Shown piece by piece: positions 3,001-40,649 of a stretch of 64,000 nt of DNA. Numbering within the stretch: position 1 is the stretch's first letter; each line of letters opens with the position of its first letter. The DNA comes from Convolutriloba macropyga (Eukaryota). The notes below the pieces were generated by a model that had not been told where the DNA came from, made no database searches, and worked only from the letters and a program-made list of their open reading frames with translations. The DNA is taken from assembly GCF_964194025.1 (NCBI RefSeq), contig NC_134480.1:186001-250000 (forward strand). The letters are read 5' to 3'. The translations under genes and the position numbers were made by a program.

Positions 3001-6000
3001 AGATGGTAACTAAGAATTATAGGAACGAAGTTCAAATAGCGGGCATCTAAAATTGGGCTTTATGGGTTTATCCCGTTTCTATTTCTGACTTCAATATTTT
3101 ATTCTGACTCTGTTCAATTTGAATTGCATTGCTGAGCAACTGATGTTCAAATTCACTTTTAGCAGAATGAGAGAACAGAGAAACTAGCCTAGAGAAGTCA
3201 AAAAAGATTTCAAGCAAACTGCTGACTAAGCGGCAAAATGATAAAGCGAAAAGTTCGACGAAGTTAAAAAAAACATAGCAGGACAACTCCTGACGTACAA
3301 TTCAAAGAATTTTCATGGACTAAACAGAAAACTAGAACTAGAACGGACTATGAATGGATTGGGAAAACCATTTAGAAAAAAATCCAATCCAAAAAATCGA
3401 AAAAAACAGTAAAAATCAAAGTGAAATTGCCGCATGTGAACAAAAAACCACTAGCGAAAAAGCGAATTTTTGTTCAAACACCGTTTTCTCACTCTACTTT
3501 AAATTTAGAGCGAAACAAAATCACGCCGCAAAACCACTCGCTTTTTCGCTCAACTTCCTGTTTCGGCGTGACCAAAATCACTACTCCAATTTGACTTCAC
3601 AAATCATGAAAATGTGCGAACAGATCTTTAAAAAAAGACAGCGCCCCAATACAATTCAAATTCTTTGAATTGTAAAAAATTAGGAGCGCTATAATAGCCG
3701 GCTGAGAAAATGAGGGCGGCTATTAATGATGTAGTTGTTGATGCAATCCATAAAGGTTATTTAAAACTCAATGGGTTTCATTTTAACTTACTGAAAATTC
3801 TAACTCAATTATTGATTTCATTTGCTCCCTAAACCTTAATTTTACTAGCCGATTTTTATAGACCTTGCAAGATTCAGAGTAGCCTGAAATGATTTTAAAA
3901 AGTCATTTAGAGAGTTAGGTAAGTCATTGATTATTCAAAAAACCTAGCACGCAATTCAGGTTGAAAAGTCTCTGTTAATGACTGTCACACGTGATGTAAC
4001 ACGCAAAAAAGCACAGGAAGAGCGTTGTGTTGTTGTTAATAAACCGCTTCTTTGAAATTTGTGGCGTGAAAAGAAGTAAAACGAAAAAAAAGCGTCGCAC
4101 GACCGAAAAATTGCCCGAAGATTGCCAGAAAGTGGCCTCCGTTAAACGCATCTACCAACGTTGGGATTGATTAGGCTAGAGAAAAAACGTAGAAAAAAAT
4201 TACGACAGCAAATTTTTTCCAAAAGTCAAAAAGTGTTCTAAGTTAATTCGCAAATTCATTAGAATTGCCAAATATGGTGAATTCCGCCTGTAAATTCGAA
4301 CACAATGAACTTAATACTAATACCAGTGAGCAGTCTACTCTGAGGACAATTGATAACGTACAGCACGAAGTCTTAAAATAAAATAAAGTCTTAGTGACAG
4401 CTTCATTGGTTTATCCAAACTCTTTTGGTTTTGCTTTTTGACCTTGACCGAATCTAAAAGGACAATGCTTTATACAATCATTGACACTGCGCATCCGTAG
4501 AAGTCGCAAACCGTACAACAATCTTTCCAAAATCGAAGAGACGAAATAAAAGGGGGTAAGTGCGCAATTTGTCAAAAAATCAGAAACTTTACTAAAAATT
4601 AGTGCCCTAAAAAACCAAAAATACAACTACGAACTAAAAACCTTAACCACATTATACTATAAATAAAAATTTTGTTCAAACACCAATTTCAAACTCGACA
4701 TAAAGAAAATAGCTAGAACTAGAACGGACTATGAATGGAGAGCGAGTGAGAAATGACGTCACGCGCGCAAATGCCGTTAGTGAGAGGAAGAAGTCATTCA
4801 GAAAATTTGACTTTTTCAGCTTTGCTGTTTGAACAAATGTAAAACGAAAGAGCGTCAGACGACGAAACAAAAAAACATAGCAGGACAAGTCCTGACATAC
4901 ATTTCAAAGAATTTTCATTGACTAAACAGAAAAACTAGACTTAGAATGGACTATGAGTGAATTGAGAAAACCATTTTTAAAAAAATCAGATAAAAAAATA
5001 AGAAAAAAAATCAATGGCAAAATGCCGCATGTGAACAAAAAAACCACTAGCGAGAAATTAAATTTTAATTCCAACAAAAAAATTAGGCCTAGAATGAGCT
5101 GTGAATGGATTGGAAAAACCATTTAGAAAAAAGCCGTTCCAAAAAACCGAAAAAAAACAGTAAAAATCAGAGTGAAATTGCCGCATGTGAACAAAAAACC
5201 ACTACCGAGAAACCGAATTTTTGTTTAAACACCGTTTTCTCGCTCTACTTTAGAATTAGAGCAAAAAAATCAGGCCGCAAAACTAATCGCTTTTTCGCTC
5301 CATTTCCTGTTTTGGCGTGACCAAATTCACTACTCCAATTTGACTTCAAAAATCATGAAAATGTGTGAACAGATCTTAAAAAAAAGACAGCGCCCCAATA
5401 CAATTCAAATTCTTTGAATTGTAAAAAACCAAGCGCACCGCAATATAGCTACGCTCAGCTTACAGCTTCGCAGCTATAAAAAAAGACAACGCCCCAAAAC
5501 AATTCAAATTTCTTGAATTGTAAAAAGGAGAGCGCCTAAATAATAGCCGTTGAGAGGCTGACGGCGGCTGTTAATAATAGCTTCAAACATTGTTCGAGAG
5601 AAATTAAAAAGACATAGCACTATTACAATCTAAACTGTTTGGATTCTAAAAGTTGAGCGGCTAAATAATAGCCATTTGAGTAGGAGACGTTGCTCAATAT
5701 TGCATACAGATGTTCCTATTTGCAAAAACGACTGAAAGGTTCACTCGAAAGCAATCGAAATGATAACCGGCATAATTCCCAAATAGCTGCGAAATAGAGT
5801 AACGTAAAATACAGATAAGATAGGAAGAGATATTGAGCTAAATACATACCCGGAAGATTGACGGAAAATAGCCGCCGTCGATTCCAATGAGCATGATTGG
5901 GATTGAAAGAACATTTTTAAGTCCAATTTATTTTGAGGGCATTTCGTAGTTGAACATAATTCTGTTTCTTAGAGAGAGGCTACTGTCAATACCAATAAGC

Positions 6001-8712
6001 ATAAGAGATGGTAACTAAGAATTATAGGAACGACGTTCAAATAGCGGGCATCTAAAATTGGGCTTTATGGGTTTATCCCGTTTCTATTTCTGACTTCAAT
6101 ATTTTATTCTGACTCTGTTCAATTTGAATTGCTTTGCTGAGCTACTGATGTTCAAATTCACTTTTAGCAGAATGAGAGAACAGAGAAACTAGCCTAGAGA
6201 AGTCAAAAAAGATTTCAAGCAAACTGCTGACTAAGCGGCAAAATGGTAAAGCGAAAAAAAGTTCGACGAAGTAAAAAAAACATAGCAGGACAACTCCTGA
6301 CGTACAATTCAAAGAATTTTCATGGACTAAACAGAAAACTAGAACTAGAACGGACTATGAATGGATTGGGAAAACCATTTAGAAAAAAATCCAATCCAAA
6401 AAATCGAAAAAAAACAGTAAAAATCAAAGTGAAATTGCCGCATGTGAACAAAAACCCACTAGCGAAAAAGCGAATTTTTGTTCAAACACCGTTTTCTCAC
6501 TCTACTTCAAATTAAGAGCGAAACAAATTCACGCCGCAAAACCACTCGCTTTTTCGCTCCACTTCCTGTTTCGGCGTGACCAAAATCACTACTCCAATTT
6601 GACTTCAAAAATCATGAAAATGTGCGAACAGATCTTAAAAAAAAGACAGCGCCCCAATACAATTCAAATTCTTTGAATTGTAAAAAATTAGGAGCGCTAT
6701 AATAGCCGGCTGAGAAAATGAGGGCGGCTATTAATGATGTAGTTGTTGATGCAATCCATAAAAGTTATTTAAAACTCAATGTGTTTCATTTTAACTTACT
6801 GAAAATTCTAACTCAATTATTGATTTCATTTGCTCCCTAAACCTTAATTTTACTAGCCGATTTTTATAGACCTTGCAAGATTCAGAGTAGCCTGAAATGA
6901 TTTTAAAAAGTCATTTAGAGAGTTAGGTAAGTCATTGATTATTCAAAAAACCTAGCACGCAATTCAGATTGAAAAGTCTCTGTTAATGACTGTCACACGT
7001 GATGTAACACGCAAAAAAGCACAGGAAGAGCGTTAAGTTGTTGTTAATAAACCGCTTCTTTGAAATTTGTGGCGTGAAAAGAAGTAAAACGAAAAAAAAG
7101 CGTCGCACGACCGAAAAATTGCCCGAAGATTGCCGGAAAGTGGCCTCCGTTAAACGCATCTACCAACGTTGGGATTGATTAGGCTAGAGAAAAAACGTAG
7201 AAAAAAATTACGACAGCAAATTTTTTCCCAAAGTCAAAAAGTGTTCTAATTTAATTCGCAGTTTCATTAGAATTGCCAAATATGGTGAATTCCGCCTGTA
7301 AATTCGAACACAATGAGCTTAATACTAATACCAGTAAGCAGTCTACTCTGAGGACAATTGATAACGTACAGCACGAAGTCTTAAAATAAAATAAAGTCTT
7401 AGTGACAGCTTCATTGGTTTATCCAAACTCTTTTGGTTTCGCTTTTTGACCTTGACCGAATCTAAAAGGACAATGCTTTATACAATCATTGACACTGCGC
7501 ATCCGTAGAAGTCGCAAACCGTACAACAATCTTTCCAAAATCAAAGAGACGAAATAAAAGGGGTACGTGCGCAATTTGTCAAAAAATCAGAAATTTTACT
7601 AAAAATTAGTGCCCTAGAAACCAAAAATACAACTACGAACTAAAAACCTTAACCACATTATACTATAAATGAAAATTTTGTTCAAACACCAATTTCAAAC
7701 TCGACATAAAGAAAATAAGAACATAGCCGGCAGATTGCCGGAATAGCTGCGAAAGAATAGACCTGCGCGCCATATAATAGAGATAGAAACAGATACAGAT
7801 CTAAAATGAAAAAAAAATCGACGCCGCTCAAAAAACTAGGCTAAAAAACATTCAGCGATAAATTAATAAAGCTTGTTAAAATTCATTCCACAGAAGCCTC
7901 TTATTGGGGACCTTTACTGCACATATGAGACTAAACAGAAAACTAGACATATAACGGACTATTAATGGATTAGGAAAAACCATTTAGAAAGAAAATCGAA
8001 AAAACAGTAAAAATCAAAGACAAATTAAATTCCCTTATGTGAACAAAAAACCACTAGCGAGAAAGCGAATTTTTGTTCAAACACTGTTTTCTCACTCTAC
8101 TTTAAAATTAGAGCGCAAAAATTTCACGCCGCAAAACCACTCGCCTTTTCGCTCCACTTCCTGTTTCGGCGTGACCAAAATCCCGACTCCAATTTGACTT
8201 CAAAAATCATGAAAATGTGTGAACAGATCTTAAAAAAAACATAGCAGGACAAGTCCTGACGTACAATTCAAAGAATTTTCCTTGACTAAACAGAAAACTA
8301 GACCTCGAACGGCCTGTGAATGGATTGGGAAAACCATTTAGAAAAAAATCCGATCCAAAAAATCGAAAAAACCTTAAAAATCAAAGTGAAATTGCCGCAT
8401 GTGAACAAAAAACCACTAGCGAGAAAGCGAATTTTTGTTCAAACACCGTTTTCTCACTCTACTTTAAATTTAGAGCAAAAAAATTTCACGCCGCTAAACC
8501 ACTCGCTTTTTCGCTCCACTTCCTGTTTCGGCGTGACCAAAATCACTACTCCAATTTGACTTCAAAAATCATGAAAATGTGTGAACAGATCTTTAAAAAA
8601 AAGACAGCGCCCCAATACAATTCAAATTCTTTGAATTGTAAAAATTCTTTGAATTGTAAAAAACTAAGAGCACCGCATTATAGCTACGCTCAGCTTACAG
8701 CTTTGCAGCTAT
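1..8712. repeat. Mosaic tandem array built from nested Helentron/DINE-1-like non-autonomous elements
   Basis: GACAGCGCCCC module recurs at 1125, 2381, 3637 (period 1256). Block 3640-4710 recurs at about 6645-7715 (offset 3008). 455-1340 resembles 4712-5600. The short ORFs here are repeat translations. Confidence 0.85.
7722..8712 (-). mobile_element. Helentron-like non-autonomous element (subTIR ATAGCTGCGAA) with a nested family-B element at 8240-8657
   Basis: Left end CATAGC-CGGCAGATTGCCG hairpin-ATAGCTGCGAA; right end TTTGCAGCTAT; A-tract flanks; inner element bounded by TACAATTCAAAGAA / TTCTTTGAATTGTA. Confidence 0.65.
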
Positions 8713-14067: not shown

Positions 14068-14901
14068 CTAAACAAATTTGTATAATTAGTAACAGACCCA
14101 TTGTCAGGCTCAGTAAAGTGTTACTTTCAGTTCAGTTGTGTCTGGATCCACTTATGGTCTGGGGACAATGAGGGTAGCCATATTGATTGTTATATCAAAA
14201 TCTAGCTGTCCAACAAGCTATCCGTTAATGTTGACAAAACAATTTAAGGGATTAAGAGAAAGATAGACAGATGCGATCTTTTTTGTTGTACCCCGTACTT
14301 TATGCACCCCCAGTTACAGAGAACGGGCAGTACTAATATAAATTATTGTGTATAAAAAAGATTAAAAAAAAGATCCGAAAGGCCATACTCATTTACAATT
14401 CTACAAACGGTGTTTTCCACAAAGATAACAAAGCTGGTAGATTGCAGCTTGAACGCTTCGTAAATCTGCAGTCTCATAAATTTAACAAGAAAAACAGACC
14501 GAAAAAGAGAAATTCTCTTTTTATTAATTGCTGGGAAGTTTTATTTTGATTTGCATTTTATACTTATGTGTGTTAGAGGAAATTAACAAATGTTTTCATT
14601 ACAAATCTGTGTGAACAAAAACTTTTATTGCACCTGAGACGTCCATTTCTTGTCCGAAAACAATTATTCTTTACCAGAGTTAACTAGAAGATTTGGTGAA
14701 ACCTTGTAACGGGTTTGCAGCAATTCAGCATTGACAGCAATGAAGCCGGCAAAAAATACGTCATTCAGAAAACAAACAGATAATCACTAAGATCTAAATC
14801 TTAAGCGGAAATTTTGAGAGCGAAAACGAGAAATCTTGAAACCCGCAAAAATATTAAGGTTGACAGAAGTTCCAAAAATGACCCGGTTAATAAATGTCAC
14901 G

Positions 14902-15790
14902 AGTAGTAATAGTTAAGCAGATCAGGGGGGGGGGTAAAAGGAAGTACCTATGTATTAACATTAGGTATAGCCTCCTACCCTCCAATTTCCAAAGATGTAC
15001 CTCCTCACAGCATGATAACCAAGCTGTTCACACGAAGGGGATTAGCAAGATAATCCTTCAATAAAAATTTAGGATGACTCATTTACAGTTACGTACGACT
15101 TTTCAAAAATGTACCTCACAGCATGACACCCAAGCTGTTCACACGAAGGGGATTAGCAGTGCCTTAACAACAAATTAATAAGGTCATTTACCCTTTCCCA
15201 TATTACACTTTACTAATTGTAAATTTCCAAAGATGTACCTCACAGCGTGACACGCAAGCTGTTCACACGAAAGGGATTAGCAAGATAATCCCTCAATAAC
15301 AAAATAGTGAGGCCATTTACCCATTCCAATATTACACTTTACTAATGTCGAATTCCAGAGATATACCTCACAGCGTGACACACAAGCTGTTCACACGAAG
15401 GGGATTAGCATGACAGTGCCTTAACAACGAATCAGTAAGGTCATTGACGCCCGTCCATATTACACATTAATAATGTAAATTTTCAAAAGTGTACCTCACA
15501 GCATGATACCCCAGCTGTTCACACTAAAGGGATTAGCAAGACAGTGTCTTAACATCGAATCAGTAAGGTCATTGAACCCCTACCATTTTACACTTCAATA
15601 ATGTAAATTTCCAAAAACGTACCTCACAGCATGACACCCAAGCTGTTCACACGAAGGGGATTAGCTATAAAATGTTTAAATATTACATTAGATATGATGA
15701 CTCAGAGTTATGTACGACTTACGTGATTTTCAAAAATGTACCGCACAGCATGATACCCAAGCTGTTCACACGAAAGGGATTAGCAAGATA
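14902..15790 (+). repeat. Left terminal inverted repeat with 7 conserved 48-bp repeats
   Basis: Reverse complement of 29162-30053 with roughly a dozen mismatches by eye before the innermost repeat. Core GTACCTCACAGCATGACACCCAAGCTGTTCACACGAAGGGGATTAGCA at ~15000, 15111, 15235, 15363, 15491, 15619, 15738. Confidence 0.95.
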
Positions 15791-15907
15791 ATCCCACAAA
15801 AACAAATTAGTTTGGATTACTCATTCATTCGCCACTACTCCTATTCATTATTTCAAAACAAATTCTAAAAATCAGTTGGTCAAAATTCCAATTTAATTTA
15901 ACTTTCT

Positions 15908-16100
15908 GTTTTCAGATAGACTTTGTTTCTTTCTCGTTGTTGACAGTTTCGATTTATCTTTTTGTTTTCAGATAGACTTTGTTTCTTTCTCCTTGTTGAC
16001 AGTTTCAAGTTGACAGTTTCTTTCTCCTTGTTGACAGTTTTAAGTCGACAGTTTTCAGATAGACTTTGTTTCTTTCTCCTTGTTGACAGTTTCAAGTTGA
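15908..16100 (+). repeat. Three ~42-bp direct repeats plus TTGACAGTTT sub-repeats
   Basis: GTTTTCAGATAGACTTTGTTTCTTTCTCCTTGTTGACAGTTTC at ~15908, ~15964, ~16051. Confidence 0.85.
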
Positions 16101-16341
16101 ACACTTGCAGTGTTGAAGCGGGTAAGCAAACAAATTCAACTAAAAGAAATGTTCCTTTGTTCCTGTATTTAAACTGGACCATTTTAGCCAGCCACAACTT
16201 CCCCCAATAGCAGATATTGCAACACTTCACTTCGCTTTGAAATCCAAAAACAAACTGGTAAGTTTGCTTTTATTAAAACTTGTTTTTGTGAGGTAAGAAT
16301 AAATTTCCAATTATTGGTTACAAAAAACCATTAAAAATCAT

Positions 16342-16600
16342 AAAATTCCCACGTGATTAGCCAATTAGTCACCACATTATTGTCACAATTAATCATAACA
16401 TCACATTAACATAGCACGTCACAATTAGGTCATAGTGTTGTCATAATTAAGTCATAATAACGTCAAAATTACGTCATGGTGTCGTCATAATAACATCACA
16501 ATAACGTCATTCTGTCGTCATAATGACGTCATAGTGTTGTCATTATTACGCCGTAAAAACTACAAAATTACGTCATTATGACATAATTACGCCATATTTG
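16342..16600 (+). promoter_or_regulatory. Putative pPolB promoter: E-box, CCAAT and array of CRE/ATF-like (C/T)GTCA(T) sites
   Basis: CACGTG at 16350 followed by CCAAT; about 20 GTCAT/CGTCA/ATCAC units at ~11-bp period, including a full TGACGTCA at ~16524. Confidence 0.5.
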
Positions 16601-16785
16601 ATAAAGGACTTTTCATTTCCGTTTATTTTCATTTTCCTGGTTTACCGAATTGAGTGCAGTTGAGTACAATAATCATTCCAACTTCTGACAAATATTTTAT
16701 TCCATCGCAAATTTCATTTTAACAATTTTTTGTACTCCTCGTTTCTCACTTCCAATCTTACATTTTATTTTGATTTTCAGCGAAA

Positions 16786-19700
16786 ATGCCCAGAAATTCT
16801 AACCCAAAGGAACAGTGTTCTTCCTGCAATAAGCTTATTATGAAATCCAACATGAGCAGACATCAGAAGCTACACGCAAAAGATGTTCACAATGCTCACA
16901 GTCATTTCCGGACGAAGCAAAATTGCAGAAGCACATTGCTTCTGTACATGCACCGTCTCTGATTATCAAGAAGAAGTTTTCTTGTAGCAGCTGTCCCTTA
17001 TCCTTCTCTACGTATTATCAACTCCTTCATCACAAAAGAAAAAGTCACCAACGTTCAATTCCTAGAACCTACGATGAAGTTGACTTATCTATCAATGGAG
17101 AATCTCCCGCTCTTCACAGTGAACTTCAAACGGTTCAACACTTTCTGCGAGACTCGGTTCTTGAATTGTCCCGAAAGAAAGTTAACAACTTCAAAATAAT
17201 AGAGATCAATCATGAAACAGTGATAGAAAAATTGGATTGTGTTTACAACGAGTTACCCAGTTCAGCTAAAATCAATATTTCGTTTGGATTCGTGCTGCAG
17301 AGTGTGCAAAATCCTGAAGAGTTTCGCTACTACTACGCAGCAGATAACAACCCCATATTTTTAAATCCGATGGTTCTCTCTGATGACTCAGATCTCAATT
17401 ATATTAAATCAAAGTTGAGAGAAGATGAAATTCTGCCAAATCTAATCAATCAACGTCCAGACACAAAATGGAAGTTTTATTGCGTTACAAATGTCACTTT
17501 CTTTGTATTTCTCCTCAGTGGTGTTCCTCTAGGTTGTATCGCTCAAAACATTCCATCTGTTTTGCTCAAGAACAAGCACGTTAAGTGCTTTGTTTCGGAT
17601 TGCGAAAAAAAGCCCTACCAAGACAACTTGTGTATGTTCCGTGCACTGTCTTACGATTTGTATGGTAGTGTTCATTTACAACAAAAAACAATGCAATTGA
17701 TGCAGACGTTTCTCACAGCAACAAGGAGAGATGACGAAACCTTTCCAGGAATACATGAGGACGATATTCCTGTTCTTGAGGCACTAGTTGACAGAAATAT
17801 TCAAGTTTACTCAATATTTTTTGACGAACAATCGGAAATGCTTGCTGAACTTACTCGTCGCTCCTCGATGAAATATACAAAGACAACTTCGTTACTGAGA
17901 TATGAAAATCACATTTGTTGGACAGCAGACATCAACAAATTCCTCAAAAAGTTCCGGTGCTACGTATGCGATCACTTTTTCGATAGATCAAATAATTTGG
18001 AAGTCCACATGAGGAATTGCTCAGAGAGAACAAAACATCACTATCCCTCAGGTACCTATCAGCTATCAGAAACTATTTTCGAGCGCTTGGAGGATGTAAA
18101 TATTAATGTTCCGCAGGAGCTGAGATTGTTTTCTAATCTTATCGTATTCGATTTCGAGTCAATAACAGTCCCCGACAATACACTCAGAAACACAGAATTG
18201 ACTTCGTGGATAGGAAAACATGTTCCCATTAGTGTGTCAATATCCTCGAATCTGCTCTCCGAACCAATTTTTATTTGCAACGAAGATCCGCTTCAACTAA
18301 TCCGTGATTTTGTATCCAGCTTGAGTAATATAGCGGAAAAGAGCACGCTTCTAATGAGGGAGAAACTCAATGATTTCGTACTGGTATTGGAAGAAAAATA
18401 TTGGGCTCTTCGACAACTGGTTCCAGTGAAAGACAAGCAGGTACCCACCGGAGCGGAAGACTTATTTGAGAACGAAGCTGAACCCGAGGTGGAGGAAGAC
18501 GAAGATCTTGAAATTAGGAGACTGAGAAGCGAGCTCAGGGTGATATCAAAATTGAGACAAGATTTTGAAAATTATTACAGTACCATACCTGTTTTCGGAT
18601 TCAACAGCTCTCGGTATGATTTAAACCTAATAAAAGAGTATCTTCTGCATCACCTCTTAATAGAAAAAAACGTTATTCCTAAAGTGATTCGAATGGGGAA
18701 TAAATATATTGGCATGAATTTTCTTGGTCTACAGTTTCTGGACATTTTAAACTTCCTGGGAGGAGCGACAACTCTGGATAATTTCCTAAAAGCCTATGGA
18801 GCGAGTGAAGAGAAAGGTTTCTTCCCCTATGAATGGTTCGACAGTATTGAGAAGTTGAATGTATCCCAACTGCCACCAATTGACAGCTTTTGGAGCAAGT
18901 TGAAGAATCACAACGTTCTTTCAGTCGATTACGATAAGTTCGTGGAATTGAAAAACGGTGGAATGGAACAGGATGAAATTTTGAAGAAGTTGAGACTCAA
19001 GAAAGTTCCACAAAATGCCGAAGAAAATTACTTGGAGCTCCAAAATATATGGGAAAGAAAAGGTATGCAGACGTTTCGTGACTTCCTCATGTGGTACAAT
19101 AACAAAGATGTCGAACCTACACTTGAGGCTATGAAGAAAATGATCAGTTTTTACCACTCAAGACAAGTAGACATGTTGAAGTTGGGCTACACTCTCCCCA
19201 ACTTGGCAAACAGGTTCCTTCATTCGTCAACAGATGCAGCTTTTTTTCCGTTTTGTGAGAAGGATAAAGAATATGATAATTACATTCGAAAGTGGCTAAC
19301 AAGGGGACCCTCAATTATCTTTACAAGGTATGCAAAAGTTGGTTAAACAAAAATTCGAGAGTCAGAAAACGTTTGCAAGTCCATCGTCGGAATAGATGCC
19401 AGTCAGTTGTACCCTTTTTCCATGACAAAAGAGATGCCAACAGGACCCTATACAAAGTGGGAGTACAATGAAGAGACTAAAAAATTTCATCCAAACAGGA
19501 ACTGGAGAAGCTACTTTGAACAGCAGGTCATGGACTACTTCCAACAGGTTCACCCCAATTGTAAAATACAAACCCAGTTCACACACAAGAAACAAAAGAA
19601 GCTCGGTCCTTATTTAGTTGATGGGTTTTGTAACCATTGCAACACGGTTTTTGAAGCGATGGGTTGCTTCTTTCATTTTTGTCCGTGTCAAGAGGAAAAA

Positions 19701-21113
19701 CCGCTTCTCTTCGAGGACATAGAAAGCGGATTGAAGCGAAGAGAACGTGACAATGATAGAAGAGAGTACCTGAAGGGATTGGGGTTGATTGTTGAAGAGA
19801 TCTGGGAGTGTCAATGGAAAAAATGGAGGAGCGAAAACACAAATGGGGTTAAAGACTTTCTCAAGTCAAATTATCCCTTCCAACCAGCGATGAACAAGCA
19901 CTCGCTCATTGAAAAAATTAAACGTGGAGAACTGTTTGGTGTCGTCGATTGTAGTCTGGAGGTTCCAGAGGAAATGTATCCTTGCTTTGAAGACTTTCCT
20001 CCAATTTTCAAGAATTGTGAAGTGGGACGAGATGATATTGGGGACCATATGAAAGAGTTTGCAGAACGCAACAAATTACTATCCAGACCCAGAAAAATGC
20101 TCATTTCCAGTTTCAAACTTGAACGAGGACCAGTTATTACACCACTTTTGTTATTTTATCTAGAAAAAGGTGTTATCCTAAAAGACGTCTTTTGGTTTCT
20201 TCAATACACTCCCCGACGCTGCTTTGAGACATTTGTTCGGAATGTTGTCGATGCCCGCCGCGAAGGAGACCAGAATAAGGAGTCAACAGTCGTTGCGGAG
20301 ACAATGAAGCTGATTGGAAACAGTTCGTATGGATATCAGATCATGGACCGTAGTCGACATACATATACCAAGTACGTGAAAGGATCACAGGTGGACAAAT
20401 TTATTAACAATAGGTTTTTCAAGACTATGAATGAGCTACCAGAGCAGATATATGAGGTAGAAATGAGCAAGTCGCGCATCGATCATAAAGAGCCAATAAT
20501 TGTAGGCTTCTTCATCCTCCAGTACGCCAAACTCACCATGTTACAACTTAAATACAACTTCTTCACCCCTTTCTGTGATAAGAACAAGTACGAACTCATT
20601 GAAATGGATACCGACAGTCTCTACATGGCCCTTAGTGAAGAAAAAATTGAAGACAACATTCGACCAGAAATGCGATCAGTGTGGTACTGGATGAGACAGA
20701 GCGACTGCAATGATAACTTTGCAGCAAACTCTAGCAGCAATTTCTTCCCACGAGAATGTTGCAGACAACATGCTGCCTTTGACAAGAGAACTCCTGGACT
20801 TTTTAAGGAAGAATTTAGATGCTCTGAAATGATTGCTCTTTGTTCAAAGACGTATTGTTGTTACGATGAGGAAACAGACACAGTTAAACTATCAAGTAAA
20901 GGACTCAACAAGAGCAACATTGAGGAGCCCCTAAAAAAGTATAGAAAAGTTCTGTTCAATGAGGAGCGAGTTTATTCAACAAATCGTGGCTTCAGAGTTG
21001 TTGACAACAAGAAAATTTGTACCTATGAACTAAAGAAAGTGGGACTGTCATATTTTTATCCCAAGCGTAAAGTCTGTGAAGATGGTATTCACACTACTCC
21101 TTTAGATTTATAA
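16786..21113 (+). pseudogene. Protein-primed family B DNA polymerase (pPolB), disrupted
   Basis: ExoI IVFDFES, ExoII FNSSRYD, ExoIII YNNKDV, motif A DASQLYP, motif B KLIGNSSYG, motif C MDTDS. In-frame TAA at 19344-19346 joins the 807-aa and 568-aa ORFs; frameshift near 16880 after the ATG at 16786. Confidence 0.95.
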
Positions 21114-21308
21114 CTCGTTTTCTTTAGCCTTATATTTATATCGCCTCTGTTTTTAATTCACAGTTTTCCTACCAATATCTCTTTTTAACAAAAGCCGTTT
21201 TTTTTAAACAAATGAATTAGAAACAAATACACATACAATCAATTAAATACAAAATTTACAAACTTTTAAAGTTTTGAAAACCATTTGCAGCATTTTACGA
21301 ATTATCGA

Positions 21309-21731
21309 TTAAACAAAGATTTTGGTTGTCAAAACTTTCAAAACATCAGCAAAGAACTTCAATATATGAAAATCATTTAAATATTTAGACGAAACTTTAG
21401 AAAATAGCACATGTGCAAAATAAATAGCATATAAACCACACAATTCTGAATCTTGGAGTTTCTCCTGTACTAATGAACCAAAGTTTAATTTTGTCTTGAT
21501 GCCATAATTTTGCAACATTTCTCCCATAGAATCTCCGTAGAACAACTTTCCATTCTTATTCGCAAGCAAAATCCAGTGGGAGCCCGGTTGAGTAGATGGA
21601 TCTATGTTGATTATACAAAACGTGTTTTTAGGTAAATATCTTGGTCGAAGATCTGCAGGGAAGGAACCGAGGTATTTGAACTTTAGGTGTGGGAACCTGT
21701 TGACAACATGTAAGAGTTGTTGATTATCCAT
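21309..21731 (-). CDS. Adenain-like cysteine (capsid maturation) protease
   Basis: NIDPSTQPGSHW...GDSMG...LQDSELCG gives His/Asp/Gln/Cys catalytic residues; ORF intact; ATG overlaps the capsid stop. Confidence 0.9.
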   Translation of the reverse strand: MDNQQLLHVVNRFPHLKFKYLGSFPADLRPRYLPKNTFCIINIDPSTQPGSHWILLANKNGKLFYGDSMGEMLQNYGIKTKLNFGSLVQEKLQDSELCGLYAIYFAHVLFSKVSSKYLNDFHILKFFADVLKVLTTKIFV

Positions 21732-22962
21732 TTTTGGTGACTGATCCCTCCTTATCAATTGCAATTGAACTTATACGTTCACCACTAACGAATAATTCTA
21801 CAGTATTGGTCAAATTGTTAGCAAAGTAGAGCTCTAAACGAATTCCTGCTCCAACTACATCAGGAAAACGCATTTCGACATTGGCCTCCTGTGTTGAAGT
21901 AAGATCGAAAAATAAATGAAAATGGTTTTCAAAATCCTTGTATTGAATGTTAGGACCGTCATCATCAAACTTGAGCGCTTTCATTGTTTCAGCATAAGCT
22001 CTCACGTGATTTTCTGTTTTCAAGTTGACTATAGTTTGATTCCCACGCACAATTTTAATTTGCTGAAGACCAAATTTACGAAAATGGAACGGATTCGTGT
22101 TGTATGTTCCACTGAACTCATTATTCAGATTCATAGCAATATCAATCATTCGAATTGGTTTGTTTGAAAATATATTTTCTTGTATAAACTGGTTCTGTCC
22201 TGCGGGAATAATAAACGTCTTTGGAAGTTCTTCATTATAGTAAAATATGGCAGGTTCTCGAAGCAGTCTGCTTTTGAAACTTCTCATCCAGTTATCTGAG
22301 ATTGCTACCTGTCTAGTAAAAAGGCAAGCTTCCAAAATTAAGGCCTCAGAGTTCAGCCCACCAGTATCGATCACATAGAACGCTGGAGAAGACCGGATCA
22401 ATTTCAGTCTGAGGTTGACATTTGGGAGAAGTAAAGCTTCACAAGCAAAAAGACCTATTGCCAACGGACCATAAAAAGTAAACTCATCTTTATCTTTTTG
22501 AAAAACAACATCTGTAAATGGTCTTTTATTAAAATCGTTTGGCTCAATCTCGTATCGATATCCTTGACATTGAGACAAGCTTTCCTTCGTTCCTTTTGTA
22601 CCTGAAAACTCAGCAGAAACAAAAGCTTGATGAGCATAAAGAGAATTGGCACTGTGAACTTGTTCATTGTTTAGATAGACTTCGCAATTAGAGAAAAGTG
22701 AATGAAGAGCATTGTTTACCAATAATGTTTCTTCGGCATTATCCAAACGTGTTCGATCGCCTTTAATAACCCTTCCTCTGATGAATAATCGAGTAGATCG
22801 CAAGTCAGTGAAAATATTACGATCAGTTTCCAATTGAAATTCGATTGTTGACTCGTTTAGGGAATTTGTTGGAAAAATTTGTTGTTCATTGGACCAAAGA
22901 ATTGGGTCTAAAATTGGAACTTTCCCAAAAAAGTCGAGCATAGAGTGAGATAAGGAATTCAT
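21724..22962 (-). CDS. Double jelly-roll major capsid protein (hexon-like)
   Basis: 412 aa; Polinton MCP motifs (IEF, TDLRST, NNALHSLFS, LLLPNVNLRLKL, GTYNTNPFHF, FDLT); canonical position between penton and protease. Confidence 0.88.
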   Translation of the reverse strand: MNSLSHSMLDFFGKVPILDPILWSNEQQIFPTNSLNESTIEFQLETDRNIFTDLRSTRLFIRGRVIKGDRTRLDNAEETLLVNNALHSLFSNCEVYLNNEQVHSANSLYAHQAFVSAEFSGTKGTKESLSQCQGYRYEIEPNDFNKRPFTDVVFQKDKDEFTFYGPLAIGLFACEALLLPNVNLRLKLIRSSPAFYVIDTGGLNSEALILEACLFTRQVAISDNWMRSFKSRLLREPAIFYYNEELPKTFIIPAGQNQFIQENIFSNKPIRMIDIAMNLNNEFSGTYNTNPFHFRKFGLQQIKIVRGNQTIVNLKTENHVRAYAETMKALKFDDDGPNIQYKDFENHFHLFFDLTSTQEANVEMRFPDVVGAGIRLELYFANNLTNTVELFVSGERISSIAIDKEGSVTKNG

Positions 22963-23002
22963 TTTAGCCGACCGTTTTTTATAATGATAATTGAGGAAAT
23001 GA

Positions 23003-23801
23003 TCAAGATTTTTTCTGGAATAATAAAGTAAGTTGAACTTGACCAATAGGGAAGAAGGGAACAAGGTGTCCAGCAGCGTTTCTTAATTCTACATGGATAC
23101 TGTGGAAGTTCGATTTGATTACTTTATGGAATCTCAAGTGTTCGAAACTGCGATAACTCAGAACCTGCGATCTCTTAAAAATCTCATCATTATGGAACTC
23201 TCGGTGTTTGAATGGAAAGGAGCGTAGAAGAGGACATTTCACATCACCGACTGAATTGGGTTCAACTATATCCAAATAGAGTAAAACTATGTGTTCCAGT
23301 AATATCAAAGGGGAGATCTGCCGTTGCCCAGAACTTGGTGTTGTATGATCTTTTCGAATAAGGCATAACAGGTTTGTCAGCTTCAACGCCCAAGTTAGCA
23401 ACCAAACTTTTGCTGAATGATACATTTTGAGATTCTCTATTGCAAAAAGTTAGTCTTCGACTTTTTTTGTCGATGTTGATGGAAAATTGAGGATCTAAGT
23501 TTTTGGGATGTCGTGCTTTTTTGGGAATATCTGTAAGACTCTTTACAAATTCATCCATAGAGTTAAAAACTGCTGGTGGAATGGCAAAGACATGCTTAAA
23601 TTTCTCATCATAGTGAAAGGTCATCAATCCTCATTCAACGTTATAACATATACCGGGATATGATACTTCGACTAAAGCTACATCCCAAGATCCATCCAGT
23701 TCAATTTTGTCGGGAAGAAAATTAGTGAATGAAGCCATTGTATTTTGAGGATAAACTTGAGAGGAAGCGTTGGATACTAATTCAAGATAAAACGAATTCA
23801 T
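23003..23801 (-). pseudogene. Minor capsid protein (penton-like), disrupted
   Basis: MNSFYLELVSNASSQVYPQNTMASFTNFLP...WDVALVEVSYP; in-frame TGA near 23632; frameshift near 23290; C-terminal LYLDIVEPNSVGDVKCPLLR. Confidence 0.85.
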
Positions 23802-23842
23802 GATGTTTGACTGTACTCTGTGACGTTTGTTTGGGAAAATGA

Positions 23843-24181
23843 TTAGTCAAGGTTCTTCAGAAAGTCTTTCCGAATTTTTTGCCGAACGATACTTTGTCTC
23901 GTGTTTTTCCTCTTTTTCATACCACCACCAACTTGTTTTCGTATTGTTGATTTCGCAGTCTTCTTTACTGCTCTTTTAATTGAAGTCTGTCCTGATTAAA
24001 CACCTCCAATTTCGGGAATGGCTGACTCGATTACATCTCGTCCAATTTTTTTTGCTGCAGGTAAAACGTATTTCTTGAGAATTGGGAGAGTTGTTCTAGC
24101 GACTGTTCTAGTCAAGGCTCCAAAGCCACGCCCTCTCTGACGAGGAACTCCTTTAAAATAAGGCACATTGTAACCGTCCAT
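23843..24181 (-). pseudogene. Small basic core / membrane-lytic protein (adenovirus pVII/pVI-like) with one internal stop
   Basis: FKGVPRQRGRGFG, amphipathic helix, TAA at 23996-23998, then in frame SGQTSIKRAVKK...QVGGGMKKRK...KNLD*. Confidence 0.7.
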
Positions 24182-24208
24182 TTTCTAGCGCGACTAATTG
24201 AAAAATGA

Positions 24209-24962
24209 TTATTTAACTTTTGACAATTCTTGCTCGTAAAAGATTCCATCAATGTTTTCTCCTTTCTGATCAACAACAAAGAAAGTCGGGAAAGGAGCCA
24301 AAGTGTTTATTTTTCGAATTAGGAAAATTTCATGTGCATAGTGAGGCTTATATCCTTTTTGAAAATTGTGCCCTGCTAATACCAACCGAACTTTATCACC
24401 TACTTTAAAATTAGGCTACTTGTTTTTTCGTAGTTTCATCCGCTTGTACATGACAGTCAAAAAGTCAGCATTTACTACATTTTTGGGTGCCAAACCAATA
24501 CTTCGATTTATTCTAGAGTTGATGATGTCAACAAACATTTGCAGGTCTTTGATGTAAGATAATGTGTCCTTTTCACATTTTGATAAAAGCTGCTTTCACA
24601 CCCTCTGCTCCTTTGCTTCGTAATGCTTCTACTCGCAAGAATCGAGAAAAAACATCGACAGTAACGAGTAAAAAGTTGATACCTCGGTTCCATTGTGATA
24701 GTTTATCCATTTGTGCAAGATCCAAACACCAAATCTCATCAATATAGCGAGCATGAGCATTTAGCCGGGGAAATTTTCTTCTGATCCTTTTGTACTTCGT
24801 ATAAGAGTCTTTTGATTGTAAAAATTCTGTAACTTTCTCGCGACTTATTCCACTTGATTTTGTTAGGTTGTTGATAGAACCGAAAGCTGTTGCTCCCTTC
24901 CCTTTATACAACTTCTGCAATTTGATTCTATCTGAAACTGTAATTGAACCAGTCTGAACCAT
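24209..24962 (-). pseudogene. Retroviral-like (rve) Polinton integrase with internal deletion
   Basis: WCLDL and TVDVFSR motifs; junction at ~24576 jumps to EKDTLSYIKDL...RSIGLAP; TAG; FKVGDKVR...FQKGY...GIFYEQEL. Second Asp and Glu segment missing. Confidence 0.92.
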
Positions 24963-25398
24963 ACTGTGTCCTCAAAATGTTGTTTTTAACCAGATATGGT
25001 CTCAGATTTAGAACTTTAAGAAATAGGAAATAGTTTGGATCAACTGGAGCGTTTTTCAATTTGATTGAATGAAGGAATGTTTTTATATCAACTCCAGTGT
25101 CAACGTTGTCAACAATAATTGTATTGGAAAGAGAAACTTTCAACCGTTTGTTTTCGTAAATTTCTTTCAAAGTTTTCAATGTCTCGGGACTGTTCTTATA
25201 GTGAAATTCCAGATCTGTCTTAAGTTCTTTAGGTGGACGCTCGGTTTTTTCGGAACTAATTTCTTCTTTCGCTTTTTTGATAACTGGAAAAACAGTTTCT
25301 TCCTTTTTATAGATCTCGCAGGAGGGTTCCGGTAATTTCCTTTTTCTGGTCTCCCACAGTTCTTTTGGAACAAGAACAAACTTTTTGACCTCACTCAT
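24928..25398 (-). CDS. Polinton-type protein of unknown function (KKFVLVP N-terminus)
   Basis: 156-aa intact ORF overlapping both neighbours; N-terminal motif and position upstream of the integrase resemble Polinton core genes. Confidence 0.65.
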   Translation of the reverse strand: MSEVKKFVLVPKELWETRKRKLPEPSCEIYKKEETVFPVIKKAKEEISSEKTERPPKELKTDLEFHYKNSPETLKTLKEIYENKRLKVSLSNTIIVDNVDTGVDIKTFLHSIKLKNAPVDPNYFLFLKVLNLRPYLVKNNILRTQYGSDWFNYSFR

Positions 25399-25709
25399 TG
25401 AAGAAATTTGAAAATTTGTTTATACAAGGTTGATATATGTAATTTAATATTGTTATTCCAGCTTTCGAGCCCAATATAAGTCTTCTGGAATTGAGGGTTG
25501 TTGATTTTGACGTGAGCTTTCTAAGTTGTTTTTGGAAGCGAACAAACTGATTTTTTCTTACTCCTGTGAGGTTTCCTTCAATCAAGTTTACAATACACTC
25601 AGAGAAATCTGATGAACTCTTTAGGACAATTTAGAAGGAAAGCTGGTTGAAATTTCTTGCTGAGATTGCGAAAGAGCTTCAGAGTATAATAGTTCTGTGC
25701 GTTTATCAT
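25391..25709 (-). pseudogene. Small basic Polinton core protein, frameshifted
   Basis: MINAQNYY...PKEFIRFL / ECIVNLIEGNL...KQLRKL...RRLIL; frameshift at ~25600. The ORF track wrongly fuses its N-terminal half to the ATPase. Confidence 0.65.
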
Positions 25710-26360
25710 TAATATCAGTAATACGAGCACGACTGTTCGGTACAAAGAATTCTGATGAAATGATGTTACATTTGAACAGTATCTCAACAAATCAGGTGTA
25801 GATGGTCTCAAATCAATCATAAGATGACCAAATGATTCTTGTGTTGCATCATCATACCACTGTTTTAGTTGTGTTCCGAGACCTAGCTGTCTTCCCAAGA
25901 TATCAATTTGCTGCACATCTCTCGGTGATTTGAACAAAACAATGTGAGTAGTCTGCAGCTCGGCATCACGTCCAGTTTTGTTTTTATGGAAAAGATTATG
26001 CTTGATATATACACAATTTAGGTTTCGATGTCTACCGGCTGTTGCAATTCCGTTGAATTTTTCCGACTTGGAAAGAATGTCCAATGAATCATCGAATATA
26101 AGTAAATATTTAGTGCCGTCAGCGGGTAAGTTATCAATTAAATCAAAGTCAACACCCTGAATGAATTCTATGTCTGTAATTGATTGAATCATTGTGTCGT
26201 AAATTGCCTGAAAGTGCTTATAAAAGTATAAAATTCGATCAAATGATGGCTGAAAAGTTTTCATTCGTAGCATATCATTGATAAAAACAGTTTTTCCAGA
26301 TCCTGAAGGACCAACAAGATACATCAGAATTCGTTCGTTTGATGAAATGATTTTGTTCAT
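25621..26360 (-). pseudogene. FtsK/HerA (A32-like) packaging ATPase, C-terminal frameshift
   Basis: Walker A GPSGSGKT, Walker B LLIFDD, arginine finger GRH, HIVLFKSPRD; inferred frameshift at ~25757. Confidence 0.9.
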
Positions 26361-26361
26361 T

Positions 26362-26617
26362 TTATGTTCGGGGATTAGGAAGTATATAACCAACGGCACT
26401 TGAAAGAATAGCAATCCAAACTGTTCGTTCGTCACAAGTTCTAGCAAAAATAAGATTAATAATTGAAAACAGAAGCAGTACTAATACAACTAAGCACTGA
26501 AATATTGACAAAAAAAGCTGTTCGAGAGCAAGTGCGACCACAGATTTTCCAAGGAGGTCTTTCCTGATTGTTATTATCAAAAATAAAGTCAGATGCGTGA
26601 TTGAGATGATCTGTCAT
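26362..26617 (-). pseudogene. Small two-TM membrane protein, probable frameshift in a T run
   Basis: MTDHLN...PWKICGRTCSRTA / FLSIFQCLVVLVLLLFSIINL...VWIAILSSAVGYILPNP. Confidence 0.6.
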
Positions 26618-26659
26618 TAGAGAGCAACTGATTTTTGTTCGTCTTTAGGTAATAATGAT

Positions 26660-27112
26660 TCACACTTTGATTAATTGGAATCGTGGTAACATTTTCAAAA
26701 AAAAACAATATGCAAGACCTGTTATATGTCCCAAGAAACAAAAATTCAATATAGAATTAAAAAATGGAACAACGTAACAATATCCAGGGCCAATATTTAG
26801 ATTTGTTTTCAGGTATCCTGCGGCATCATGAAATGTAGCGTGTAATCGAAAAACTTTTGACCAATTGAGAAGTTTTTCTAACTTTGAGTCACCAACTCCT
26901 ATTAGTCCCCCAAACGGAGCTTCTCTGTTGATTTTATCCAGATCTACATTTTTGTTCAAGCTTCGACAGACAGCCAAAAAATAATTTTTGCGTTTTGTAT
27001 TTCCAACAAATAGTTTACTGATTTCTTTCTCTAACACTACAATTTCCTCAATGTTCATATCAAGCAACTGTACTGGAACATTAAAATTTAAAAAGTGATT
27101 AAATACAAACAT
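26660..27112 (-). CDS. Putative divergent phospholipase A2-like protein
   Basis: GLIGVGDSKL...LHATFHDAAGY resembles the parvoviral PLA2 GPG loop and HD dyad; ORF intact. Confidence 0.45.
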   Translation of the reverse strand: MFVFNHFLNFNVPVQLLDMNIEEIVVLEKEISKLFVGNTKRKNYFLAVCRSLNKNVDLDKINREAPFGGLIGVGDSKLEKLLNWSKVFRLHATFHDAAGYLKTNLNIGPGYCYVVPFFNSILNFCFLGHITGLAYCFFLKMLPRFQLIKV

Positions 27113-27146
27113 CACAACATACAATATAAAAAATTTACAATTACTG

Positions 27147-27896
27147 TTATGCACTTTGCGATCTTTTTTGAATTTTGACTTTGTTCAGCACTGAATTAAT
27201 TTCATCACTCATTCTGTGTAGCTTCTCCATCTCACCAATTCTGACCGAAAGAAAGCATTTCCTTCTAAAATTGTCCTTTTCAGTCCCTCGTGTGAACAGC
27301 TTGATTGTGAAGTAACATCGATTCGGGTCATCTTGGAAAAATATTTTAGTCACACACACCTTCCGTCGAGCAGTCTCACTCACTTCCCAGAACACATCAA
27401 ATTTTGTTTTTTCCTCAACATCAGTTGGTTGGAACACAGTTTCGTCAATCACCAGCTTCGCAGTACCTACAGTTGGTTCGAACAGTAGTGCTTCTTTTAT
27501 CATCTCAGGTATCTTTTCAATAACAAGCTTCAATTCTCTGGCCGATAGCATCAGAAATTGATGCAGAATATATTCACTTTCCACATTTTCGCGAAATACT
27601 TTCAAGTGAGTCCAGTTAGAGTTTGTGTTGACGGTTTCCTCTGGGATGCTGATTTGAAACTTGCGATTCCCGTATTCTTGAAAGCACCAACAGTTGTTTC
27701 TTCCATCGTGCTCCTCATTTGGTTTTGGGTCGGTGTTGTCTTTTTTATCGTTGTTTTCTTTAAATAGAGAAAACATGCTCTCATTGTGGTTTTCCAACTG
27801 TGGTGAAGGAGCAACTGGTTTTCCTTTGTAATCTCGTTTGCGGATGGGAAAGGAGAATGGTTTTTTGGAGTTAGGAGAGACAGAGCTTTGATCCAT
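27147..27896 (-). CDS. Accessory protein with two tandem PC4/PUR-like domains (putative ssDNA binder)
   Basis: 249-aa intact ORF with two similar beta-beta-beta-beta-alpha-like repeats; ttcacag acceptor abuts the ATG. Confidence 0.5.
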   Translation of the reverse strand: MDQSSVSPNSKKPFSFPIRKRDYKGKPVAPSPQLENHNESMFSLFKENNDKKDNTDPKPNEEHDGRNNCWCFQEYGNRKFQISIPEETVNTNSNWTHLKVFRENVESEYILHQFLMLSARELKLVIEKIPEMIKEALLFEPTVGTAKLVIDETVFQPTDVEEKTKFDVFWEVSETARRKVCVTKIFFQDDPNRCYFTIKLFTRGTEKDNFRRKCFLSVRIGEMEKLHRMSDEINSVLNKVKIQKRSQSA

Positions 27897-28833: not shown

Positions 28834-29161
28834 TTTTTTAGGCTACTTATGTTCAACCGAGACAAAAGACAAAATGAATCGATAATGTTTTTCAGCATCA
28901 TCATTCCAAAAGCAGATCTGACAAATTATGTGATTGGCTAAAAAAAATAAGAAATGGACATTTTCAAAACAATAATACAACTTTTTCTGAAATCGGAAAA
29001 TCGGAACTTCAGTTTAAAACGACACAGTAAAACGCTATTTTAAACAAGAAATTGATTTAAAAAATTGTAAAATCTGTAAAAATCAAAAATAAAAAATTGT
29101 ACTTTTTTGTTAATATGGGAATGTGTGGGTAAATGACCTTATTAATTTGTTGTTAAGACGC

Positions 29162-30053
29162 TATCTTACTAATCCCGTTAGTGTGAACAGCTTGGGTATC
29201 ATACTGTGAGGTACATTTTTGAAAATCACGTAAGCTGTACATAACTGTGAGTCATCATATCTAATGTAATATTTAAACATTTTATAGCTAATCCCCTTCG
29301 TGTGAACAGCTTGGGTGTCATGCTGTGAGGTACGTTTTTGGAAATTTACATTATTGAAGTGTAAAATGGTAGGGGGTCAATGACCTTACTGATTCGATGT
29401 TAAGACACTGTCTTGCTAATCCCTTTAGTGTGAACAGCTTGGGTATCATGCTGTGAGGTACACTTTTGAAAATTTACATTATTAATGTGTAATATGGAAG
29501 CGCGTCAATGACCTTACTGATTCGTTGTTAAGGCACTGTCATGCTAATCCCCTTCGTGTGAACAGCTTGTGTGTCACGCTGTGAGGTATATCTCTGGAAT
29601 TCGACATTAGTAAAGTGTAATATTGGAATGGGTAAATGACCTCACTATTTTGTTATTGAGGGATTATCTTGCTAATCCCTTTCGTGTGAACAGCTTGGGT
29701 GTCACGCTGTGAGGTACATCTTTGGAAATTTACAATTAGTAAAGTGTAATATGGGAAAAGGTAAATGACCTTATTAATTTGTTGTTAAGGCACTGCTAAT
29801 CCCCTTCGTGTGAACAGCTTGGGTGTCATGCTGTGAGGTACATTTTTGAAAAGTCGTACGTAACTGTAAATGAGTCATCCTAAATTTTTATTGAAGGATT
29901 ATCTTGCTAATCCCCTTCGTGTGAACAGCTTGGTTATCATGCTGTGAGGAGGTACATCTTTGGAAATTGGAGGGTAGGAGGCTATACCTAATGTTAATAC
30001 ATAGGTACTTCCTTTTACCCCCCCCCCCCCTGATCTGCTGAACTATTACTACT
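29162..30053 (-). repeat. Right terminal inverted repeat with 7 conserved repeats
   Basis: Reverse complement of the left TIR; ends ...TATTACTACT followed by the TSD. Confidence 0.95.
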
Positions 30054-30990
30054 GTCACGAAATAGCCCGTCTCCCCAATTCTGAACTCTGTAACCCGACA
30101 AATTGGGAAAGCATAAAGCAGATAACTTTTGTGGAAACTTCACAGATCTAAAACAGAAAAACAAACACTAAAATTCATTTAAAAAAGTCATCAACGAACG
30201 CGATACCGTTCCAATTGAGCCAATTGCTAGTTGAAAACAAGAGAACAAAAACGTCGAAAAACTAAATGAAAATCTTGTTTTAAATTGTGTATCTTAAGAT
30301 TTAAACTTCAGTGGCTGCACTGAAAAATGAATATCCGAAATAACACAACTTAAACCATTAGTAAAAATGAAAGAAAACGACAGAAATTGCACTGAACTTA
30401 GATTACATCTGGTGTCACTTCCAGAAGAAAACCCAGAGGAAACCAACCAATTGAGCTTGTTTCAAAAGGCATGACAAAAACGAAATGAAACCGATGACTT
30501 CACAGTGCGTACATGGAATCTAGATTTGAACAGCCTGTCGATTGCCGGAAAAAGAGGCGTTGCAAAACTAAAAGCTTGAACTGAAACAGTTCGAATAAAA
30601 GTGATCAAAATTACTGCCTAACTTTTTCTTAGTGTCAACAATTACTCTATTTTGGTCTGCAGTTTCATTGGATTCGTTGAACATGGTTAATGCAACCTGC
30701 AAATTGCGTGATAATAAGCATAACACAATCACCAGTCAGCAGTTTATTTTACTCTAAGGAACTTTGATGACTTAATGTAAAAAGTCTTTATTCGTTAAGT
30801 CTTATTGCTCGGTCTTTATCGATTTATCACGTTTCGTTTCATTTCGTACTTTGATCCTGAACACGTTCGGGTACATTACTGAATGAATTATCCATTCCAT
30901 TCAGCTGAAACAGTGAATGAGGTGAGTCAGCAGTGAAGCGTCTAATTTGTGACATGTGTAAAACTCAAAAAAGGTAAATCGGATTAAAAA

Positions 30991-40600: not shown

Positions 40601-40649
40601 TAAAAATATTAACTTCCAAGTAAAAAATAACGAGTTAAATCGCGGTTTA

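Follow-up and report, generated by a model that had tools for sequence, protein, structure and literature searches.

Tandem arrays of 48-bp cores and variable spacers occupy the terminal inverted repeats (TIRs) of a Polinton in Convolutriloba macropyga, and they are best explained as a variable-number TIR minisatellite of the Galileo/Foldback type, in which the likeness of the cores probably stems from homogenising recombination. Among the copies of this element, the arrays vary in copy number, differ between the two ends of single elements, contain mosaic spacers and switch linkage in the middle of the core; a sister subfamily lacks them. Protein binding to the core may add a weak, additive benefit. 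Positions given below refer to the window, the whole 64,000-nucleotide stretch that was analysed.

A core–spacer array in both ends of a Polinton

The element spans positions 14902–30053, has AGTAGT/ACTACT ends and is flanked on both sides by the 6-bp target site duplication (TSD) GTCACG (14896..14901 and 30054..30059, plus strand). Its left TIR (908 bp; 14902..15809, plus strand) shows 97–98% identity to the right arm (29143..30053, minus strand), and the arms are 98% complementary over 885 nt. Five genes were recognised between them. A protein-primed DNA polymerase B (pPolB) with N-terminal C2H2 fingers and one in-frame stop (16833..21113, plus strand) was identified via its homologue P0002: the pPolB itself had no direct Pfam match, and P0002, which is 62% identical to it, matches PF03175 with 46.9 bits (cut-off 25.8). 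The other four genes lie on the minus strand. These are a cysteine protease (21309..21770; a weak Peptidase_C48 match, E 0.0024, below cut-off), a major capsid protein (21724..22962; Atlas score 0.98, clustering with PF21738 DJR-like in 24–30% of members), a putative rve-type integrase in pieces over three frames (24209..24971; no Pfam match, Atlas cluster at 0.97 with PF00665 in 10% of members) and an A32-type packaging ATPase (25599..26360; Pox_A32, E 1.5e-08, above cut-off). PDB sequence searches gave no useful match. The long TIRs with (AGT)2 ends, the 6-bp TSD, the pPolB and the ATPase, capsid and protease genes (the last on a weak match) identify the host element of the array as a Polinton/Maverick, defective in the present copy. 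In the available text of two reports, Polinton/Maverick TIRs measure 46–1,447 bp, with (AGT)2 ends and a 6-bp TSD (PMC8097293; 10.1101/2023.08.22.554363). The present TIR falls within this range, and the element has the pPolB, ATPase, protease and capsid genes of the group, together with a candidate integrase.

The left array (14997..15785, plus strand; TRF score 723) consists of seven 48-bp cores, starting at 14997, 15111, 15235, 15363, 15491, 15619 and 15738, and six spacers of the classes pB, As, pA, As, As and B2. Its periods are 111(114), 124, 128, 128, 128 and 119 bp. The right TIR holds the mirror array, seven cores on the minus strand with the periods in the same order (29167..29955). 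The repeat–spacer layout of seven cores of about 48 bp in both TIRs, as the original prediction described it, was thus confirmed at a period of 111–128 bp. A 27-nt core word has 402 exact matches in the genome compared with 0 for its reversed control, and the repeat itself is far beyond chance. The spacers had been sorted into one group of the second to fifth and another of the first and sixth. This grouping holds for the distal half of the spacers, and the first spacer has its proximal half in common with the third; the spacers are thus two-module mosaics.

A terminal segment (14902..14996, plus strand) separates the left array from the end of the element and comprises the AGTAGT tip, two short variable blocks, a G run and one copy of a 22-bp motif (14950..14971, plus strand) that in a distant family of Polintons is amplified into tandem repeats of 29 bp. 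The same segment is present in the array-less sister subfamily described below. The region 14902–15000 can fold by pairing of the G run with a C-rich tract (z −3.3), a tract that varies among copies.

Three further repeats were seen in the window. An 11-bp tandem array of about 15 copies (16416..16580, plus strand; found by TRF) lies upstream of the pPolB gene and outside the TIR; it contains CRE-like TGACGTCA words and is the source of spurious sub-threshold miRNA-family matches. Two host repeat families, a 1,256-bp tandem repeat with internal sub-repeats (1–8700 and 32786–34313) and a second family with 2,632-bp spacing (40256–51689), are unrelated to the Polinton.

Arrays turn over rapidly and are absent from a sister subfamily

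More than 100 of 150 scored candidates in the same genome are ATPase copies of >84% identity. From the array-bearing elements we collected 555 units in 60 arrays, after removal of seven loci that overlapped longer stretches. The 27-nt core word occurs in 103 of the 555 sampled cores, which, together with its 402 exact matches, would put the genome total at roughly 2,000 units. Unit number ranges from 2 to 43 per end, and only 4 of 27 elements have as many units at one end as at the other. These 27 have both ends present and matching TSDs (25 found by script with ≤1 mismatch, two by eye); eight further pairs were excluded, one for a broken tip, three for unmatched TSDs, two as incomplete stretches and two for an insertion. 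Some long arrays contain higher-order repeats (L024, L103). Four-fold-site divergence among array-bearing elements is only 5–7% (23 copies), and a range of 2–43 units at this level of divergence signifies that turnover is fast relative to point mutation.

For an ATPase-side sample of 43 element ends, we sorted elements by ATPase nucleotide identity. At ≥94% identity, cores were present in 23 of 24 elements, the remaining one having no end in the extracted stretch. At 89–91% identity, which defines the sister subfamily, cores were found in 0 of 18, with none at the other end either, and a single element at 88% identity had no cores. The sister subfamily and the array-bearing group have the first ~105 bp of the end in common; the sister TIR is 226 bp long. 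The two groups differ at 25–37% of four-fold sites. The internal four-fold diversity of the sister (0.053–0.063) is the same as that of the array-bearing group; it is therefore equally old and spread over the same period without the array.

Within the array-bearing group, an insertion of ~1.7 kb inside the first left core is common to three elements (L160, L163:860-2500 and L169:900-2542). The three copies are 96–98.5% identical. Since two of the carriers have their own TSDs on different chromosomes, this lineage likely kept moving with its array displaced from the tip.

These observations bear on the idea of a phased protein-binding platform, in which the element could not do without the cores, as iterons in helical phase or as packaging signals that serve its integrase, polymerase fingers or ATPase. 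The position of the array next to the tip, the head-to-tail order, the mirror symmetry of the present copy and the presence of a dyad in each core speak for such a role. It is nevertheless improbable. All 18 sister elements do without cores, some array-bearing ends possess just 2–3 units, and the insertion lineage spreads with 1.7 kb between tip and array. In addition, periods of 103–185 bp are mixed inside single arrays, and those of 111, 119, 123, 124 and 128 bp intermix freely, so that no single helical phase exists.

Other repeats were noted at the sister ends. The left end has a 21-bp tandem repeat outside the TIR (L177:1408-1759, L181:4355-4591), and a sequence resembling it follows the array in some array-bearing elements (L005, L025, L032, L037, L039). 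The right end has an internal 153-bp AT-rich repeat (L056).

Core and spacer divergence suggest exchange within the core

The internal spacers of the sampled arrays, 479 in number, belong to a small set of recurring classes built of proximal and distal modules, with the six largest classes accounting for 362, and the classes can be aligned with each other. This settles the nature of the spacers: they belong to a tandem repeat, as had been predicted, and were not acquired. A CRISPR-like memory array shares with these TIRs only the alternating look of repeat and spacer, and it is refuted by the recurring spacer classes. Moreover, no CRISPR repeat family (Rfam) was found in the array and no Cas-like Pfam match among the 12 open reading frames of the element, which leaves this explanation with practically no chance.

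The cores were predicted to be more alike than the spacers and selectively conserved. Between classes, the first part of this holds. Over 15 class pairs, cores differ by 0.075–0.157 and spacers by 0.127–0.393, a ratio of about 0.43 (means 0.112/0.263), with the most distant spacer pairs near the shuffled control of 0.41. Within classes it does not hold: core and spacer diversity are about equal in six of six classes, with overlapping intervals (for example 0.114/0.113, 0.051/0.060 and 0.049/0.043), although defining classes by their spacer lowers within-class spacer diversity, a bias towards equality that can hide core constraint. A comparison free of this bias is offered by last units defined by their flank (20 left and 24 right ends). 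Here, core diversity is 0.050 and 0.050, that of the adjoining spacer 0.041 and 0.044, and that of the flank 0.084 and 0.036. Shared and singleton alleles in these units stand at 9:20 in the core, 9:16 in the spacer and 32:55 in the flank (P 0.66–0.78).

Other comparisons gave a different picture. In 12 orthologous left ends, cores (0.030 and 0.032) are less diverse than the spacer (0.055) and about half as diverse as the flanks (0.066 and 0.076). Common polymorphic sites are also fewer in the core (6/48) than in the spacer (25/80; P 0.019, the sites not being independent). In a diverged sublineage, cores differ by 0.10–0.17 and spacers by 0.15–0.23, and cores are closer than spacers in 8/8 units of L163/L169 and 4/6 of L166. 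Selective conservation of the core, as originally claimed, hence receives a divided answer: core and spacer diverge at equal rates within classes and at orthologous, flank-defined positions, but at unequal rates between classes and in the diverged sublineage.

The distribution of variants along the unit is informative about its exchange. Among 342 distinct triplets, the variants at core positions 6 and 17 go with the class of the upstream spacer, and those at positions 23, 31, 33, 35, 47 and 48 with the class of the downstream one. This switch of linkage in mid-core points to the core as the site at which units are exchanged. Four-gamete pairs are common across the unit, and chimeric units occur in which a spacer is fused to the terminal segment; L159 has units whose spacer leads directly into the 22-bp motif. 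Homology between terminal segment and spacer is only a lead: one of five classes gave P 0.011, and the other four did not reach significance.

To these data we compared a neutral toy model with random sequence, sheltered spacer classes and the best 48-bp window chosen afterwards. Without conversion, the best window has a core/spacer ratio of about 0.75–0.76, that is, without any mechanism. With identity-dependent conversion, the ratio averages 0.56–0.72, and values of ≤0.45 were reached in 6 of 50 runs. Neutral exchange can thus yield a pattern of this kind in the model, usually weaker than the observed one, which leaves room for mild selection on the core.

We propose that slippage and template switching lengthen, shorten and reshuffle the array. 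Crossovers would fall inside the common 48-bp core, so that cores stay alike while older blocks of spacer persist. Such exchange might take place during strand-displacement copying or between co-existing copies, and the old spacer classes would be sheltered in the first and the last unit, each anchored by a unique flank. The element would be mobile without needing the array. The spread in unit number, the rarity of equal ends, the sister without cores, the insertion common to three elements, the similar diversity of core and spacer within classes and at flank-defined positions, the mid-core switch and the chimeric units all argue for homogenising recombination, as do the toy model, the unrelated arrays of other families and the resemblance to Galileo (see below). 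It is weakened by the between-class ratio of 0.43, which lies beyond the usual range of the model, and by the scarcity of common core polymorphisms, the diverged sublineage and the 12-end subset.

Motifs and folding of the core

The following predicted words were found as claimed: the ACAGC-N11-GCTGT dyad of the core, the GGGATTA..TAATCCC inverted repeat of units 1, 3 and 7, and AGGTCA or TGACTCA in the spacers. The factor names used here (CSL, IR1, AP-1, homeodomain) serve as labels and are not results. The 5-bp dyad is not beyond chance; shuffling alone creates one in 22% of cores and 68% of units. As selected features, the named motifs did not stand up. A CSL-like word is present in only 145 of 285 distinct cores (TTCACAC in 188, GGATTA in 225) and an IR1-like word in only 45 of 161 distinct 80-bp spacers. 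TGACTCA, the AP-1-like word, occurs in 90 of 104 B spacers, and both this word and GGATTA are retained near background decay.

Small structured RNAs, encoded as a cassette, had also been considered for the array. At the p-type junction there is a real hairpin of 7–8 bp (plus strand of unit 3, z −3.4), as such a cassette might have. Compared with shuffles, however, the folding of cores (z −0.68 and +0.42) and whole units (z −0.53 to +0.31) is no better. Covariation gave no support to the core dyad either: of 87 changed stem cells in the 285 distinct cores, 1 is compensatory, 41 are wobble-compatible (on one strand or the other) and 45 are broken. Even with E relaxed to 10, Rfam matched nothing in the array, and its matches elsewhere were all sub-threshold. 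Structured RNAs are a highly improbable explanation.

A more serious alternative is that the core evolves under mild purifying selection as a dispensable, additive host-factor site, most plausibly of homeodomain type at GGATTA, acting as an auxiliary origin or enhancer; other lineages would multiply different TAAT-bearing units likewise. We regard this as conceivable but somewhat unlikely. The between-class ratio of 0.43 sits in the tail of the neutral toy model, and ATTAG and both dyad halves are the least variable blocks of the core. The TAAT/ATTA excess over the ends of several Polinton lineages would also fit, as would the 22-bp terminal motif, which persists in families whose ATPase identity is about 58% and is multiplied in them with variable linkers. 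On the other hand, excess constraint is absent at orthologous positions, and the 225 of 285 cores with GGATTA are about what background decay would leave. The present array itself has no TAAT enrichment (4 vs 3.1; single units P 0.11–0.51). The TAAT signal was noticed before testing, tandem copies are non-independent, and the D/E families share motif ancestry. Two precedents exist for binding sites in such ends. In adenovirus, the inverted terminal repeats have an auxiliary origin with single sites for the host factors NFI and Oct-1, whose function has been demonstrated. Like adenovirus, the Polinton is a protein-primed replicon with possible host-factor sites behind its tip, here as multiplied units of putative function. 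The second precedent is Galileo, whose TIR repeats contain transposase sites, according to the accessible portion of the report (PMC3688188).

Comparison with known repeat systems

Returning to the minisatellite interpretation, the closest counterpart is Galileo. In the text available for subfamily F, its TIR tandem repeats are restricted to the subfamily, variable, and different at the two ends (PMC3573991). The likeness to Galileo/Foldback elements extends to tandem repeats within the TIR, limitation to a subfamily, variable number, unequal ends and exchange among copies; variable direct repeats in the TIR with unequal ends, the mark of foldback/Galileo-type elements, are what we observed. 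Galileo, however, is a cut-and-paste element of the P superfamily with demonstrated THAP binding to its repeats, whereas the host element here is a Polinton, and its units, putative binding sites at most, combine a core with mosaic spacers.

Two other systems share parts of this behaviour. The TIR-220 repeats of Tetris in Drosophila virilis expand to kb-size arrays and seed satellites, as far as the consulted portion of the source goes (PMC4079207). TIR-internal repeats expand likewise here, to as many as 43 units, and a gene-less foldback derivative of 1.5 kb exists (L104:1826-3364), in which two tips and two arrays stand head to head within a 6-bp TSD. Tetris is itself non-autonomous and foldback-type, whereas the core arrays are known from element ends. 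In Meloidogyne satellites, short conserved blocks (Box 1 and Box 2) lie at monomer junctions, in the part of the report at hand (PMC3694981). There too, short blocks are conserved across diverged classes, junctions fall in the blocks, and simple and higher-order arrays shuffle. Those satellites are chromosomal, however, with monomers 32–64% alike and a Box 1 that resembles the CENP-B box (PMC3694981), whereas the block here is 48 bp long and lies inside the end of a mobile element.

The original prediction knew of no description of this architecture in Polinton TIRs, and the literature searched, a body without Kapitonov and Jurka (2006), Repbase entries and supplements, contains none. Core–spacer arrays in Polinton TIRs are not described in the portions available of PMC8097293, PMC8547959, PMC12220804, PMC8502044, PMC8363768, PMC6723459, PMC12910113, 10.1101/2023.08.22.554363 and 10.1101/2022.07.12.499685. 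The TIR of the Polinton-like virus Gezel-14T has a direct repeat of >300 bp, in the excerpt of its report (PMC11296320).

Little work has been devoted to the cis-acting parts of Polinton ends. Mavirus TIRs are said to carry 50-bp repeats, in a report that was not recovered in the literature searched. Should the arrays be neutral, a Foldback-like behaviour would be newly recorded for Polintons, and it would generate satellites and gene-less derivatives. Should they instead be bound by host factors, the natural array-bearing and array-less sisters provide a comparison for the switching-on of an endogenous virus.

End repeats and tips across Polinton lineages

Families at 58–66% ATPase identity have unrelated end arrays. 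Twenty stretches were examined, with no end found in 13. The end units measure 101 bp in L042 and L043 and 29 bp in L048, L050, L107-L114 and L118. The 22-bp motif (14950–14971 in the window) forms the basis of the 29-bp unit, joined by variable linkers. Across lineages, the first ~105 bp and the 22-bp motif are kept, and the arrays behind them turn over. The 22-bp motif ranks above the 48-bp core as a candidate for a conserved signal at the ends.

In hand-picked end repeats of seven lineages, TAAT/ATTA leads all 4-mers (54 vs 23.9). In nine fixed end windows the count is 87 vs 45, and in 99 host windows 272 vs 268. This excess is a lead, found post hoc and from non-independent copies. One reading of it is that Polinton lineages here repeatedly and independently multiply TAAT-bearing units behind their tips as tunable landing pads for host homeodomain-type factors. 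The units in question would be the 128-bp unit described here, the 29-bp unit on the 22-bp motif, the 101-bp unit and similar repeats in a relative from another sample. Such landing pads, which we consider a speculative and rather unlikely reading, would form an expandable counterpart of the adenovirus auxiliary origin and could determine the time and the cells in which an endogenous virus becomes active.

Relatives were also sought outside this genome. Metagenome contigs yielded 36 loci with pPolB relatives. Ends were sought in 13 of the longer loci, and L122 alone extends to terminal repeats. L121 and L122 are metagenome Polintons, near-identical to each other and related at 56% pPolB identity, and the L122 end has repeats of 73 and 127 bp followed by an adapter-like tail. 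Homology of L122 to the core (GGGGATTA, TCACAGCGTG) was considered and rejected, as the likeness is not significant against 431 control windows, 21 of which equal it in shared 7-mers and 60 in alignment. Viral contigs contained no relative by capsid protein or pPolB profile, and neither the core nor the 22-bp motif had a match in them. A search with the tip for further families mostly returned the two known subfamilies, and the control count was high.

The tip is itself modular. At 14908–14924 of the window and in the tips of 82 matches, a 9-nt and a 5-nt variable block lie among the fixed AGTAG, AGCA and G run. The blocks occur in many combinations, and three of the 5-nt blocks are found in both subfamilies. 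Some TSD-matched insertions have a different tip haplotype at each end (L028/L029, L038/L096, L033/L083 and L172/L065). Copies thus recombine at their ends, shuffling tips, terminal segments and units, and some single insertions have two end haplotypes.

The variant of the 22-bp motif in L055/L048 has 4,786 exact matches. The motif, present in L048, L050, L107-L114, L118 and L119, also forms an apparent satellite-like cluster of 15 kb at G000:C1:52662891-52678349.
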